Positions 5,817-55,728 of a stretch of 64,000 bases of DNA are shown here, in pieces. Positions within the stretch are counted from its first letter, which is position 1. Every line of letters begins with the position of its first letter. The stretch is from positions 24,185 through 88,184 of the IMG/VR virus record IMGVR_UViG_3300048687_000070. One strand, 5' to 3'. The notes under the pieces were generated by a model. It saw nothing but the letters and a program-made list of their open reading frames with translations. It ran no database searches and had not been told where the DNA came from. Position numbers and translations under genes: made by a program. This DNA is from a virus.

Positions 5817-6499
5817 TCAGCTACGAAGAGGCCGGACAGCTCCTAGGTCTCGCCGCCGCCCGAGACCAGCGCACCGTCGGAGACGCCGACGTCCTCGCCT
5901 GGCACGCAGACCTCAACACGGCGGGCGTCTCCTACGCCGACGCCAGCGCCGCCCTCACCCGCTTCTACGCCGTCGACATGGCCGGCCTCGAACCCGAGAA
6001 GCGCCGCCGCGTCACCACCCCCGACGTCATCGGCATCGCCCGCAAGATCCGCAACGAGCGCCTCGCCAACTTCACCTACGAACCGCCACCCGGTGACTCC
6101 GACCCGGACTATGTCCGGCGCCTCCGCGGCCAGATCGAAGCCACCGCCAGCGGGCAGGTACCGCCACCGCGGGAGCGCCCCGCCCTGGAGGGCGAGCCCA
6201 GCGCGCAGATGCGAGCCCTCGTTGCCGGGATCGGGCGCCCCGTCGCCGACACCGACGAGGAAGCCGCCGCGGAGGCCGAGCGCGACACCGTCCGCCGCTC
6301 CGGACCGCTCGGCCGGGAGTGCCCCAAGTGCGCGGCTGCCATCGGCCGGCCGTGTCGCACACCCCGCGGCAAGGAGCGTGCACCGCATCCGGCCCGCAAG
6401 GGCGAGACAGCGAACCCCGAGGAAGAGCGCGCCGAGATGGACCGGCGCCGCGCCGCCTCCGCCGCCTCCCTGCAACGCCGCCAAGAGGAGATCGCCTGA
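5813..6499 (+). CDS. Helicase loader/inhibitor-like protein with Zn finger
   Basis: EAGQLLGLAAARDQRTVG..VLAW N-terminus directly after the initiator; CPKC..C..H motif. Confidence 0.6.
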   Translation: MISYEEAGQLLGLAAARDQRTVGDADVLAWHADLNTAGVSYADASAALTRFYAVDMAGLEPEKRRRVTTPDVIGIARKIRNERLANFTYEPPPGDSDPDYVRRLRGQIEATASGQVPPPRERPALEGEPSAQMRALVAGIGRPVADTDEEAAAEAERDTVRRSGPLGRECPKCAAAIGRPCRTPRGKERAPHPARKGETANPEEERAEMDRRRAASAASLQRRQEEIA

Positions 6500-7961: not shown

Positions 7962-8163
7962 TGCCGCGCGTCGTGTCCCGCCTGGGTGACCGGTGGCCGC
8001 CCGGGTCGCGCCCGCGGGGCCTGTGCGGCGGTCTGGAGCACCGCTGGACGCCTCAACCCGGCCCCGGCGGCCCTCGCGTCGTCCGGGAGGCTCCTGGGCG
8101 CTCTCAGAGCCGCACAGGGCGTCGCGGCGCCACTGGCCTCAACCCCGGGCCGTGGGGCCGCGG

Positions 8164-8367
8164 ATGACCACCCCGCCCGCCCCGCGCTGCGCCGCCTGCC
8201 GTCGCCGCCTGAGGCGCCCCACCACATCGGGTCTCGGCCCGGTCTGCGAGAAGCGCCTCCAGCCCATCCACACCCCGACCGCCGCGAGCAGCGGGCCAGT
8301 GCCCGTGACCGACGGCCAGGTCGAACTGCCGCTGACCGAACACCAACCAACCCTCTGGAGCCTGTAA
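8164..8367 (+). CDS. Small Zn-ribbon protein (DUF6011-like)
   Basis: CAACRRRL...GLGPVC motif. Confidence 0.6.
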   Translation: MTTPPAPRCAACRRRLRRPTTSGLGPVCEKRLQPIHTPTAASSGPVPVTDGQVELPLTEHQPTLWSL

Positions 8368-16954: not shown

Positions 16955-17160
16955 GCAAGTTAGTGTCCCATCCGCTGGCATGTGACATGACGTTACGTGA
17001 ACAGCTCGAAATTGCCTAGGTCTAACGCTTGACGGAGGGAACATCGTGTTCCTATGGTGGAGCTCGTTGGAAGGCAAGACGCCAACAAAAATGGCCCCGC
17101 CCGGTGTTGGAGCACCGAAGCGAGGCCTAGGTCAGACGCCCTCAGTACAGGGAGACCAAC
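16955..17160. promoter_or_regulatory. Divergent promoter region between regulators and transfer operon
   Basis: Lower GC; TTGACG at ~17029; imperfect palindromes TGTGACATGACGTTACG and GAACATCGTGTTC. Confidence 0.55.
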
Positions 17161-17162
17161 TC

Positions 17163-17606
17163 ATGAGCACAACCGTACAGCCCGCGCCCCTGGCGCTGGA
17201 GTCCACTTCCCGTCTCGTCCCGGCGATGGTTGGCCGGCCGGGCGCCACGCAGACCGTATGGATCACCTGCCCCGCATGGTGCTCCCAGGACCACCTCGCT
17301 GACCGTGAGGTCGCGATCGAGGACATCGACCACTACTCGACCCCGTCGGGCTGGAGTGTCGGTTCGATCCTCGCCCCTGACGAGGCCGTGCACGACCTGT
17401 ACGTGCGGGTCCACTCGGACCCGATGCACGAGCTGCCCGCTCTGCGTGAGGCGCATGTCCTCCTCGGCAACGGCTCGCCGTTCGACTCGTACCTGACGCC
17501 GGACATGGCGGAGGCGACGGCCGACGAGCTGGTCGCCATGGCCTCCCAGATCCGCCAGGCCGCCACCATCGCCCGCGAGCAGCAGGTCGGGGAGGTGTCG
17601 TCATGA
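17163..17606 (+). CDS. DUF6907-like protein
   Basis: TCPAWC..DH...DIDH..LTPDMAE motif seen in actinomycete mobile elements. Confidence 0.7.
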   Translation: MSTTVQPAPLALESTSRLVPAMVGRPGATQTVWITCPAWCSQDHLADREVAIEDIDHYSTPSGWSVGSILAPDEAVHDLYVRVHSDPMHELPALREAHVLLGNGSPFDSYLTPDMAEATADELVAMASQIRQAATIAREQQVGEVSS

Positions 17607-20247: not shown

Positions 20248-21060
20248 GTGAACAGCCCACCTTCCCGCGCCCGGTGGGATCCGCTCGTCGCGGTATCCCT
20301 GATCGCCGGTGTCGGCTTCACTGCGATCGCCGAGTACCAGCTCGCCAGAAAGATCGGCTCCCCGGTACCCGTGGCGGTACTACTGCCCGTGGCATTGGAC
20401 GTGTACGTGGTCGCCGCCATCCGCCGCTCTCGCGGCCGGGACATCGCACTCGCACTCCTCCTCATGGGCGTCGCGCAGGTGTCGGCGCACATGCTCGAAG
20501 CCGGCGTCGTCGAGATTTCAGTACCGCTCGTCGCGGCCGTCTCCGTCCTGGTACCGCTCGTCATCTGGCGGGTGCACGCGCTGGCGGTACTGCCGAAGAA
20601 GCAGCCCGCCGGTACCGGTACCGCCCCGGCCGTGAGCGAGCCGGTTCCGGACGCCACCGTCGAGCGAGTACCGGCATCCGCGCCCGCCCCGGTACCGCCT
20701 GCGGTACCGGTACCGCCCGCGAGCCGCCCGGAACTCGAGGCCGTACCGGAAGCAGTACCGGCCCCGGTACCGGTACGGCCGCGCCGCCCGAACAGCCAGA
20801 AGACGCCGCGCAGTACCGCCCCGAAGTCCCGGCAGAAGAAGACCGGTACCGGCTCGTTCGACGACCACGTCCGCACCGCCATCGGCTGGCTCGGCGACGA
20901 ACCGGACCTGTCCGGTACCGCCATCGGCGAGCGGCTCGGTACCGGCGACTCCTACGGCCGCCGCGTGCGCCGCGAAGCCCTCGCGAAGGCCGGTACCGAA
21001 CCGGCTCCTGGCCCCGAGCACCGGGACCACAACACCGACCAAATCCTCACCGGAAGCTGA
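20248..21060 (+). CDS. SpdB/DUF2637-like membrane protein: ~4 TM, Pro-rich linker, C-terminal HTH
   Basis: AEYQLAR..LLPVALDVY TM block; LSGTAIGERLGTGDSYGRRVRR HTH-like end; directly upstream of the FtsK gene. Confidence 0.7.
   Translation: MNSPPSRARWDPLVAVSLIAGVGFTAIAEYQLARKIGSPVPVAVLLPVALDVYVVAAIRRSRGRDIALALLLMGVAQVSAHMLEAGVVEISVPLVAAVSVLVPLVIWRVHALAVLPKKQPAGTGTAPAVSEPVPDATVERVPASAPAPVPPAVPVPPASRPELEAVPEAVPAPVPVRPRRPNSQKTPRSTAPKSRQKKTGTGSFDDHVRTAIGWLGDEPDLSGTAIGERLGTGDSYGRRVRREALAKAGTEPAPGPEHRDHNTDQILTGS
20360..21000. repeat. Dense (G)GTACCG motif array inside the spdB-like gene
   Basis: Roughly 20 GTAC(C) cores by eye, including GGTACCGGTAC tandems at ~20611, ~20703 and ~20766. Confidence 0.85.
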
Positions 21061-21063
21061 CCC

Positions 21064-23205
21064 ATGAGCGCCCACCACACCGCGCCGGCCGACCCGAAGC
21101 CCGCCCTGAAACTCGTTCCCTCGACCGACACGGCCGTGCAGGTGTCGACTCGCCCGGAGCGGCGCCGCCTGCGCGCGGACCGACTGCGGCGCATCGTCGT
21201 CGCCACCCGCAACAACCCGGGGTACCGGCTCGCCGTCCGGCACGGCGCCTACACCCTCGGCGGGACCCGCATCCTGACCCGTCGCGCCTGGGACGCACGG
21301 ACCGCGGCCCGGTACGAGCGGATGATGCGCATCGCCGAAGCGTCCGGGAACGAGGAGGCCACACGGGTGTGGGAGCAGCGGGCCCACGCCTACCGGTTCG
21401 CCCGGCGCCGCGGACGCATGGAACTCCTGCAACTGATCCTCAACGCGCCCAAGGCGGTAGCCATGGGCGCGGGCGCAACCGCTGGCGTTCTCCTGCTGCT
21501 CGGGATGATGCTGGCCGCTGCCAGGGAAGACATCAGTGACGTCCTCGTCCCGCTCAACGCCGTGATTCAGCTGGTCAGCTGGGTTGCGTTCATCGCGGGC
21601 GTCGTCTGGCGGCCGTTGCTGGTGTCGCTGCCGTTCCTCGCTCTGGCCGGGGCGTGGGCGGTCGGACGCCACCAGAAGTCCGCACCGGTATGGGCACTGC
21701 CCGTCGACCCCGGCGAGCAGGGCATCGTCCCGGACGAGAACGCCATCATGCGGGCGCTGGGCAAGCTGAGCATCGCGGAGCTCAATGCGGCCATCAAGGA
21801 GGGCTGGCAGCCGCGTTGGGTGCAGGGCACCGTCCGCTCCGGCAACGGCTATCACGCCCAGCTGCAGCTTCCTCTTGGCGCCCCCGTCGAGATGATCATC
21901 AAGAAGAAGAATGTTCTCGCGCACAACCTGCTCCGCAAGCCCGTCGAAGTGTGGCCCACCGAGCCGCCCCGCATGCCTGGCGTCCTCGACCTGTGGGTCG
22001 CCGACCAGGGCTCCCTGTCCGGGAAGATCCCGAGTTGGCCGCTGCTGCACGAGGGCACGACCGACTACTTCGAGGGCGTTCCCCTCGGCGTGTCCCAGCG
22101 CGGTGATCCGATCATCGGGAAACTGATGGCCGCGAACTACATGGTCGGCGGGATCATGGGATCCGGTAAATCGTCGCTGGTCATCTCGCTGCTTCTGGGC
22201 GCCGCCCTCGATCCGATCGTCGACATCGAGGCCTACGTCATGGCCTACAACGTCGACTACGACCCGCTCAAGCCCCGCATGAGCGTCCTGGTCAAGGGCG
22301 ACGACGACGAGCAGCTGAAGACCGCCCTCGACCGGCTGCGCAGCCTGACCAACGAGGTCACCGAACGCGGCAAGCTGCTGGAGGAGCTCGGCGGCGAGAC
22401 CACCAAGCTGACGCGGGAGCTTTCGCTGAGGGACCAGCGGATGCGGCCCAAGGTCATCGTTTTCGACGAGTGCCACGAGCTGTTCATGCACAAGGGCTAC
22501 GGCAAAGAGGCCGCTGAACTGGCCATTCGCGTCATGAAGAAGGCCCGCAAGGTCGGTATCACCCTCATCTGGGTCACCGTGTCGCCGACCGCCGACAGCA
22601 TCCCGCGCGACGTCACCCGCAACACGAGTCACCGTGTCGCGTTCGCCGTCGGCGACCACGTCGCCAACGACGGACTGCTCGGCTCCGGCCGCCACAAGGC
22701 CGGCATCACCGCCACCACACTCATCCCCGGCGAGGACGTCGGCACCGCCGTCACCGTCGGCTTCACCAGCAAGCCGTTCGAGGTGGTGCGCGCCCACTAC
22801 GTGGCCCGCGACCCGGAAAAGAACATCGACCAGGTCACGCCCGTCGTCGAGCGCTCCTTGACGGCGTACAAGCGCGGCGACGTGTGGGAGGTGCCCGCAC
22901 CCGAGAGGGTCGACCACCTCGTCGACATCGCGAAAGTCCTCGGCCACGAACCCAAGCTGCTCACCCAGGACGTCCTGCACGAACTCCACAACCTGAACCC
23001 GGACGTCTACGGCGAGTGGACGTTCCGGGACCTGCGCAGCGTCCTCGACACGGCCGGCCACGGCGAGTACAAGACCGGCGGGCGCCAGCACGTCAGCCTC
23101 GACCGCATCCTCGACGCCATCGCCGCCCGCGACGAATACGCCTCCGAGGACGCCGTAGAGATCGGCTACAGCGAGGGAGGCGATGAGGGAGGAAGCGATA
23201 CGTGA
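21064..23205 (+). CDS. traB: TraB-like FtsK/SpoIIIE DNA translocase
   Basis: N-terminal TM helices, Walker A GGIMGSGKS, Walker B VIVFDECHE, KARKVGI motif, C-terminal wHTH-like domain. Confidence 0.85.
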   Translation: MSAHHTAPADPKPALKLVPSTDTAVQVSTRPERRRLRADRLRRIVVATRNNPGYRLAVRHGAYTLGGTRILTRRAWDARTAARYERMMRIAEASGNEEATRVWEQRAHAYRFARRRGRMELLQLILNAPKAVAMGAGATAGVLLLLGMMLAAAREDISDVLVPLNAVIQLVSWVAFIAGVVWRPLLVSLPFLALAGAWAVGRHQKSAPVWALPVDPGEQGIVPDENAIMRALGKLSIAELNAAIKEGWQPRWVQGTVRSGNGYHAQLQLPLGAPVEMIIKKKNVLAHNLLRKPVEVWPTEPPRMPGVLDLWVADQGSLSGKIPSWPLLHEGTTDYFEGVPLGVSQRGDPIIGKLMAANYMVGGIMGSGKSSLVISLLLGAALDPIVDIEAYVMAYNVDYDPLKPRMSVLVKGDDDEQLKTALDRLRSLTNEVTERGKLLEELGGETTKLTRELSLRDQRMRPKVIVFDECHELFMHKGYGKEAAELAIRVMKKARKVGITLIWVTVSPTADSIPRDVTRNTSHRVAFAVGDHVANDGLLGSGRHKAGITATTLIPGEDVGTAVTVGFTSKPFEVVRAHYVARDPEKNIDQVTPVVERSLTAYKRGDVWEVPAPERVDHLVDIAKVLGHEPKLLTQDVLHELHNLNPDVYGEWTFRDLRSVLDTAGHGEYKTGGRQHVSLDRILDAIAARDEYASEDAVEIGYSEGGDEGGSDT

Positions 23206-23353
23206 GGGAGAAATCCCTCCGCGCCTCCCCACCTGCCTCCCCACGCCTGACCTGCACAAAGGCCCGGTTGGGGAGGCAAGGGAGGCAAGGGAGGCAGCCC
23301 TCCCAAGACCCCGGAAAACGCGCTGCGGCCTCCCCTCGGCTGCCTCCCTCCCC
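23175..23353. repeat. clt-like locus: GGGAGG(C) direct and inverted repeats
   Basis: GGGAGGCAA-GGGAGGCAA-GGGAGGCAG at 23271-23297 plus further GGGAGG/CCTCCC copies in both orientations at the traB 3' end. Confidence 0.7.
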
Positions 23354-55344: not shown

Positions 55345-55578
55345 TCACCGGGCGACGACGAAGATCCCCATGCCGTCCACGGTTTCGACGAGGCCTTCGT
55401 CCTTGAGTACCTGGGTGGCCTTGCGGAGGGTGTCGCGGGCGACGCCGTATTCCTGTTCCATCTCCACCATCGACGGGATGCGCCGGCCGGGGGGAATCGT
55501 GCCGTCCTCGATTTTCCGGCGCAGGTCGTTGGCGATCTGGCGGTACGGGGGAACGGGCCCCTCCCTGTCGATGATCAT
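55345..55578 (-). CDS. Standalone GntR wHTH regulator
   Basis: PPYRQIA..IPS..EYGVARDTLRKA..L..EGLV...GMGIFV. Confidence 0.85.
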   Translation of the reverse strand: MIIDREGPVPPYRQIANDLRRKIEDGTIPPGRRIPSMVEMEQEYGVARDTLRKATQVLKDEGLVETVDGMGIFVVAR

Positions 55579-55728
55579 GGTAGCGGACGCTAGACCACCG
55601 CCCCCACCCTGCCATAGCTACCCCCGGCCCTAGCAGGGGGTAGTACGGTTCTGTCACCACGCAAGAAACCCCCGCATCCGAGGGCACGGACCGGGGGCAG
55701 GCCGACGACGACAAACCGGAGCGTCGAC

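Follow-up and report, generated by a model that had tools for sequence, protein, structure and literature searches.

Introduction

In ParB-parS systems and at RacA sites, many copies of a short site gather a DNA-binding protein on one locus, and the iterons of the lambda origin sit in the linker-coding part of the binder's own gene, O. The ParB, RacA, and lambda O proteins are soluble and reach the membrane or the pole through partners. Here, we describe a locus at which the binder itself would be the membrane anchor. It is a gene of a Streptomyces phage that encodes a membrane protein predicted to have four transmembrane (TM) helices and that holds about 20 copies of an 8-bp word, CGGTACCG, within its own coding sequence. 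The gene lies in a stretch of 64,000 nucleotides (the window), positions 24,185-88,184 of virus record IMGVR_UViG_3300048687_000070, whose whole replicon (WIN) is 88,184 bp.

By analogy, the nearest demonstrated case is SpdA2 of pIJ101, which binds palindromes (sps) inside its own coding region; synonymous removal of the sps sites lowered segregational stability (Thoma et al. 2014, PMC4170104). SpdA2, too, is a mobile-element binder with sites in its own gene, and it belongs to the Streptomyces spread and stability gene set. However, it is a small soluble protein of 135 amino acids (aa) with an N-terminal binding domain, whereas the window's protein has a four-TM anchor. Furthermore, sps is a 12-bp palindrome, CGTCACGTGACG, which is present in one to three copies and is shared by different plasmids in conserved form (PMC4170104), unlike the roughly 20 copies of an 8-bp word that differs between relatives. 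We found no sps near the gene, and the window as a whole holds two matches with ≤2 mismatches, which is fewer than chance.

The clt loci of pSVH1, pJV1, and pWTY27 are also element-specific arrays of short repeats (7 to 9 bp) that engage DNA with a membrane machine. In contrast to the array described here, they are read by the C-terminal domain of the translocase, comprise four to nine repeats, and lie at or behind the 3' end of traB (cf. PMC4447253 and PMC3583192). In the window, a cluster of another word, GGGAGGCA, holds the place of clt, and the CGGTACCG array appears independent of TraB.

A third comparison is with SpdB2 of pSVH1. SpdB2-type traits include pore formation, binding of double-stranded DNA and peptidoglycan, and interaction with TraB, and SpdB2 has homologues on actinophages (PMC4447253). 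The window's protein has two features of this type, namely four TM helices and a place in a tra/spd operon beside traB. SpdB2, however, is described as a 409-aa protein with an N-terminal coiled coil and nonspecific DNA binding (PMC4447253), and tblastn of the window's protein against 72,556 plasmid records, in which SpdB2 itself was not directly compared, revealed no similarity to SpdB2. Membership of the protein in the SpdB2 group, or in the DUF2637 family considered below, is unproven. A literature search of limited coverage found no published description of such arrays.

Results

The replicon is a virus record in which a large terminase, portal, protease, major head protein, and tape measure are encoded downstream of the membrane-protein gene. 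The GTG start of this gene lies 1 nucleotide (nt) past the stop of an upstream 95-aa open reading frame (ORF), and its stop lies 3 nt ahead of the ATG of traB, in a co-directional run of genes. Its parts are as follows.

20248..21060, plus strand: membrane-protein gene, 813 bp, 270 aa, with a four-TM anchor, a Pro-rich linker, and a small C-terminal tail
20248..20577, plus strand: anchor-coding part, aa 1-110, four hydrophobic stretches, last residues WRVH, four motif sites at conserved Val-Pro
20578..20850, plus strand: linker-coding part, densest portion of the array
20851..20991, plus strand: tail-coding part, 47 aa, "YGRR" type, helix-turn-helix (HTH)-like by sequence pattern only
20363..21000, no strand: array of 21 GTAC-centered sites, consensus cCGGTACCGs, 10 of them exact CGGTACCG

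The word is concentrated in this gene. An earlier note on the window, made from the sequence alone, had reported about 20 GTAC(C) cores, and our counts bear this out: the gene holds 22 of the 212 GTAC tetramers in the window (18 GTACC, 2 GTACT, and 2 GTACG), together with 12 GGTACC, 16 GTACCG, and 10 CGGTACCG. Elsewhere in the window, the densest 700-bp stretch has 8 GTAC, with a median of 2. A count of GTACCG on both strands of the window gives 88, whereas shuffled sequences average 24.7 and reach 40 at most; 30 of the 88 fall within 20363-20998. The full word is an 8-bp palindrome, and 10 of its 13 copies in the replicon are inside the gene. A position count over the 21 sites gave c-C-G-G-T-A-C-C-G-s, beyond which the flanks carry no information.

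The TM-coding part (gene nt 116, 128, 274, and 304), the linker, and the tail all contain sites. As the earlier note had noticed, the core is read in two main frames, 13 times as GTA-CCx (Val-Pro) and 7 times as xGT-ACC (Gly-Thr or Ser-Thr); 2 copies use the third frame. This reading comes with unusual codons. GTA accounts for 14 of 36 Val codons in the gene versus 3.5% in the replicon, and GGT for 7 of 20 Gly codons versus 8%. We compared the gene with two codon nulls of 5,000 draws each. When the protein was kept and synonymous codons were redrawn from replicon usage, the mean number of GTAC was 2.56 (standard deviation, 1.33; maximum, 9). When the gene's own codons were permuted among like residues, the mean was 10.1 and the maximum 18. 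Neither null reached 22 in any draw, and the 10 copies of CGGTACCG, with 2.5 expected, were likewise matched in none of 5,000. Tandem Repeats Finder detected only two short tandem stretches in the gene (15 and 34 bp), so slippage covers few sites, and the proposal that repeats or slippage alone made the array fails. With both nulls exceeded, selection for the word acts on the DNA, as the earlier note had supposed. The array is a clear case of a DNA signal that shapes the codon choice and the amino acid make-up of a protein linker (the 85 residues of aa 111-195 include 22 Pro, 15 Ala, and 12 Val), a point of consequence for gene annotation and for experiments that recode genes.

To characterize the word in related genes, we compared 44 genomic loci and one plasmid record, and later six useful viral and six genome loci, which are referred to by L numbers; the membrane protein has 59 homologues at E ≤ 0.001. 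For 45 genes (L038 was left out owing to a stop or N in frame), the commonest 6-mer was set against 300 synonymous nulls. One 6-mer exceeded all 300 nulls in 24 genes: CGGTAC in 4, including the window's gene, CGGAAC in 19, and CCGGTA in 1 (L042). L009, with CGGAAC, was matched by a single null of the 300. Eight more genes passed only a statistic limited to 6-mers with at least two A/T, and these carry GCGAAC(ACC), GGATAC, CGGGTAC/CGTACC, and GAGTGC types, plus L034; another four were marginal. Nonpalindromic words are strongly one-stranded (e.g., CGGAACC in L014, 12 on the plus strand and 0 on the minus strand).

Synonymous codon choice switches with the motif group. In dipeptide counts that pool related genes, the CGGTACCG group spells Val-Pro as GTA-CCG in 76 of 90 cases and Gly-Thr as GGT-ACC in 40 of 48, whereas the CGGAACC group has GTT-CCG for Val-Pro in 42 of 83 and GGA-ACC for Gly-Thr in 96 of 126. 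The latter group also uses GAA-CCG or GAA-CCA for 128 of its 157 Glu-Pro pairs. The same switch is visible in the conserved Ser-Val-Pro and Leu-Val-Pro of TM4, where Val-Pro is GTA-CCG in the CGGTACCG group and the Val codon is GTG, GTC, or GTT in the others. Seven CGGTACCG genes keep 18 to 21 sites each, of which 11 to 16 share an alignment column with the window's sites, while 12 of the 40 columns that hold sites are each occupied in a single gene; site number is kept while positions turn over. In most groups, the arrays start directly past the WRVH end of TM4, and the window's group adds four to five sites in the anchor-coding part. Pooled spacings in the CGGAACC arrays, which come from related genes and are not independent, cluster near 9-13, 21-22, 31-34, 42-43, and 54 bp, so that the sites would fall on one face of the helix.

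In L036, a tandem Glu-Val-Thr-Thr in the linker (6283-6320; gene nt 337-372) is encoded by a 12-bp unit with GTGACCACC, and what looks like an array there is largely this 12-bp tandem repeat.

The earlier note had suggested testing whether the motifs differ among homologues and co-vary with the HTH helix; an anchor tree and DNA breakpoints indicate that they differ and follow the C-terminal tail. By sequence comparison, the word changes with the linker-tail cassette and not with the membrane anchor. The same tail type comes with the same word in eight of eight elements (WIN, L001, L002, L045/L046, and L047-L050), and in L047, L048, L049, and L050, all CGGTACCG copies of the 10-kb loci (6/6, 12/12, 9/9, and 14/14, respectively) lie inside the ORF. 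YGRR-type tails are spread over five anchor clades, one of them with a true DUF2637 anchor (L053), and CGG[T/A]ACC accompanies them in every case. Conversely, within one tight clade of 27 rows (support, 100/97) in the tree of 56 anchors, 21 YGRR tails all have CGGAACC, 4 tails of another type all have GGATAC, and L036 has GTGACCAC. The L045 anchor pairs with the L042 anchor (97/87), yet their words follow the tails; the L024 anchor pairs with those of L052 and L054, and the words follow the tails likewise. Single-linkage clustering of anchors and tails placed everything in one class and was not used.

These exchanges have visible borders. In comparisons of L018 with L036, L018 with L038, and L014 with L038, DNA identity is 78 to 86% through the flanks and the TM-coding part, breaks directly past the TM domain, and resumes at the stop codon, and the neighboring genes are unchanged where cassette and word change. 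On a larger scale, WIN (88 kb) and the whole of L046 (36.7 kb) share only five proteins, namely the tail, an integrase, two structural-type proteins, and a GntR protein. The tail is the most similar (68% identity, versus 44% for the integrase and 34% for GntR), and 9 of 13 CGGTACCG copies in L046 lie in the tail half of its gene. Scans of viral records with other tails added L058 as a useful replicate and L059 as an exception; L060-L069 were dropped because short patterns had matched portal-like or HNH proteins.

L046 itself (NZ_CP108470.1) is a 36.7-kb circular "plasmid," typed as non-mobilizable, that corresponds to a phage-plasmid, with genes for capsid, portal, terminase, tail tube, ParA, DnaB, and integrase.

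Hydropathy supports the part of the earlier note that gave the protein about four TM helices, with hydrophobic stretches at aa 11-30, 38-59, 66-83, and ~88-110. The strongest positive loops follow TM2 and TM4, and the tail is therefore probably cytoplasmic. The alignment of tails has the invariant pattern L..P.L.G..G...D.YGRR..R.A, which suggests an HTH fold; none of our searches confirmed the HTH nature that the note had also proposed. The family of such tails is a small one: at E ≤ 0.001, the tail occurs in 109 representative proteins among 1.84 billion, almost always at the C terminus. In a sample of 401 genomes of the genus Streptomyces, 7 had it. The whole membrane protein lacks a Pfam match of its own (E ≤ 0.01) and a PHROG match. 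Among nine family members searched against PHROGs, eight had no match, and L053 matched phrog_733, "excisionase." With tblastn, the window's protein had no match in 50,697 phage records, and in the plasmid records it matched only L046, through the tail only.

We also compared the anchor with DUF2637 (PF10935; cut-off, 22.8 bits). The family was matched neither by the window's protein at E ≤ 0.01 nor by its anchor at E ≤ 5, nor by any of 24 close homologues, and hhalign of nine anchors against three true DUF2637 members gave a probability of 9% and an E value of 0.0035. Three relatives (L053, P0058, and P0059) pass the cut-off, and the L045 anchor scores 18.9 bits. True DUF2637 proteins make up 11 of the 34 representatives that carry the same tail (best E, 8.3e-38). 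For a stored homologue, the Atlas gave spdA-named, DUF2637, and HTH_23 clusters at 0.86 to 0.91, which serve as leads only.

Directly downstream of the membrane-protein gene lie the translocase gene and its own repeats.

21064..23205, plus strand: traB, FtsK-like DNA translocase, 713 aa, Pfam FtsK_SpoIIIE E = 3.6e-5, 23.8 bits versus a cut-off of 24
23175..23352, no strand: clt-like GGGAGGCA cluster, five exact and five one-mismatch copies, arranged - - + + + - - -, overlapping and following the traB stop

The GGGAGGCA cluster is likely the TraB site, separate from the CGGTACCG array. GGGAGGC repeats behind traB recur in L031, L043, and L047, and the TraBs of L031 and L043 are 67 to 69% identical to that of the window, although the in-gene word of both loci is CGGGTAC. 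The array, by comparison of loci, is independent of TraB. The same tail and word have the window's TraB as a neighbor in WIN, TraBs of only 32% identity in L047 and L048, and an unrelated protein of ~680 aa in L001, L002, and L050. No TraB-type neighbor was found within 5 kb in L049, and the complete L046 has neither TraB nor PF01580. In all four genomes tested, TraB homologues were on contigs other than that of the array.

L001 3033-5072; L002 7580-9676; L024 7690-9810; L041 8227-10236; L050 6007-7410: conserved protein of ~680 aa in TraB's place

Pfam gave nothing for this protein at E ≤ 0.01, and its likeness to TraB is limited to a weak Walker-B-like match; it may be an unrecognized translocase. 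Behind traB, L033 and L022 carry CCGCTAG-type repeats. In L047, the C-terminal 100 aa of TraB find a second, separate match at 7996-8265, downstream of the GGGAGGC repeats, which may represent a duplicated recognition domain.

Discussion

We hypothesize that the tail binds the array in its own gene and that the protein thereby forms a membrane tether, a reading to which we assign a probability of roughly 60%. In this model, the protein has four TM helices, followed by a Pro-rich linker of ~85 aa in the cytoplasm and, at the C terminus, a small tail that would bind DNA. This tail would recognize the 8-bp CGGTACCG, whose ~20 copies in the gene are spelled mostly via the rare codons GTA and GGT. 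With this many copies in one gene, many protein molecules would collect on a single 650-bp patch and hold the genome at the membrane. Because the tail is made last and the product would be inserted in the membrane during synthesis, binding would favor the genome copy that encodes it. The patch lies directly ahead of traB in this phage, with the GGGAGGCA site 2.2 kb downstream, and by analogy to the Spd literature, the tether would probably position DNA for TraB-driven spread or for hyphal segregation. The earlier note had gone as far as to propose that the gene is its own binding array and tethers phage DNA to the membrane or transfer pore next to TraB. The first part stands as the best-supported reading on comparative grounds, with binding predicted, and the protein may tether DNA to the membrane or pore. 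The adjacency is true in the window, but TraB is not needed, as the loci with 32%-identical TraBs or the ~680-aa protein and the TraB-less L046 indicate.

If the tail reads its own gene, it would provide a compact genome-membrane attachment that takes one gene, no partner proteins, and a specificity that can be swapped by cassette. The DUF2637/Spd-like membrane proteins that are widespread in actinomycete phages and conjugative elements would then have a concrete role open to testing, and the movement of naked DNA of a TraB phage between hyphal compartments would have an explanation. Natural pairs of word and tail would also be ready orthogonal parts for DNA tethering. More tentatively, the linker-tail-array cassette may be a self-contained, cis-acting membrane "centromere," in which the gene is both protein and platform for docking, protein made from a given genome copy ties that copy to the membrane, and Streptomyces phages, phage-plasmids, and integrative elements exchange the cassettes as incompatibility-like specificity modules. 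We regard this extension as possible rather than probable; if true, phages with TraB could spread their DNA through the mycelium without particles.

Several observations weigh against binding of the array by the tail. The tail has no Pfam match at E ≤ 5 and no sequence relative in the PDB (profile search; best E, 1.1), and its relatives match HTH families only weakly (Sigma70_r4, 0.049; HTH_11, 0.074; HTH_23, 0.0061). Co-inheritance of word and tail is partly automatic because the array lies in linker- and tail-coding DNA; the co-variation argument rests on everything else staying the same. Correspondence between tail and word is also imperfect. No array was found by the synonymous null in 8 of the 45 genes (L003, L004, L024, L026, L032, L036, L037, and L044), and L003 and L004 have the tail but only three to four CGGAAC-type sites. 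The helix SYGRRVRR is seen in tails that go with CGGTACCG and in tails that go with CGGAACC; of the 47 tail columns, only 3 (2, 31, and 32) tell the CGGTACCG tails from the CGGAACC tails (8 versus 26), and columns 31-32 (Thr-Gly) are themselves encoded by a motif copy. The tail helix of L059 is like that of the GGATAC group, yet its gene carries 7 copies of GTACCCG, with 6 more near the translocase start. Finally, in the CGGGTAC group, quite different tail helices go with one and the same word, and this word always forms a second cluster at the 5' end of the translocase gene, ~1 kb past the membrane-protein gene, at the following positions.

L043 7520-7794; L031 7267-7468; L033 7893-8054; L022 7902-8391; L041 8011-8277; L059 4242-4493: second cluster of the CGGGTAC group

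The second cluster may be a tre-like operator, and in this group another reader may be involved.

As a rival reading, the array could be a tre-like operator or titration array for a GntR/Kor-type repressor of the transfer operon. TraR of pSVH1 binds 14-bp repeats, TTTGGTACACAACT, that have a GGTAC core (PMC4447253), and the window encodes a small protein of this type.

55345..55617, minus strand: small GntR-type winged HTH protein, 90 aa, Pfam GntR 2.3e-16
L018 8451-8717; L036 8293-8559: stand-alone GntR winged HTH protein

Homologues of the window's GntR protein occur in 13 loci and in L046, and the second CGGGTAC cluster lies where tre sites are expected. However, the GntR proteins do not co-vary with the motif. 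Three different recognition-helix sequences occur among the GntR proteins of CGGAACC loci, the arrays of L018 and L036 differ although their GntR proteins are near-identical, WIN and L046 have the same word and GntR proteins that are only 34% identical, and no GntR protein was found within the available flanks of L001, L002, L047, L049, and L050. Furthermore, the array is intragenic rather than at a promoter, and ~20 sites through a coding region are unlike known operators. We therefore consider control by GntR unlikely and keep it only as a rival to recognition by the tail. As an observation apart, many prophages encode a stand-alone GntR winged HTH protein of ~88-90 aa about 2 kb downstream of their membrane-protein gene.

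It is quite unlikely that the sites are read by some other factor, as intragenic iterons of an origin, a packaging signal, or targets of a host protein. Iterons inside a gene have a precedent in lambda gene O, the pooled spacing of the CGGAACC arrays is helix-face-like, and in the CGGAACC prophages the gene lies 2.5 to 3 kb before a small terminase, a 550-aa protein, and a portal. In the window, though, the terminase gene is 9 kb away, and a replication origin at the gene was rejected given that it has neither a GC-skew turn nor an A+T-rich stretch. A host reader fits poorly with words that differ between phages of one host genus, and flanking genes stay homologous when cassette and word change.

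TraB was the reader expected at first, with the array as its clt, the recognition repeats through which an FtsK-like translocase picks up DNA. The array lies directly before traB, its word has the 8-bp length reported for clt repeats (PMC4447253), and clt can overlap coding sequence, as described for pWTY27 (PMC3583192). TraB was rejected as the reader on the strength of the separate GGGAGGCA cluster, which occupies the usual place behind the 3' end of traB and is conserved in L031 and L043 in spite of their different in-gene word, and of the independence from TraB documented above: the array lies before traB, does not co-vary with it, and keeps its word whatever its neighbor. That the array is clt is thus very unlikely. 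By these comparisons of repeat, position, and co-variation, the system works like clt and centromere arrays and is neither clt, sps, nor tre.

Lastly, that the array has no protein-binding role and reflects amino acid repeats, slippage, or an effect of rare codons on translation is disfavored to the point of being scarcely credible. In its favor, Val-Pro and Gly-Thr abound in the linker, 6-bp tandem copies occur at three places, and the L036 "array" is largely tandem repeat. Against it, enrichment of the full 8-mer exceeds what the gene's own codons would give, two frames and both strands are used for the word, codon choice switches with the motif group, and sites in the conserved TM-coding part fall at residues that relatives encode otherwise.

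The neighborhood upstream of the gene has a recurrent feature of its own. In the window, the ORF at 17046-17606 resembles DUF6907 by eye only. Across the compared loci, a DUF6907 protein is encoded just upstream of the membrane-protein gene in 17, an assignment that is Pfam-based for L027 (5609-5995).

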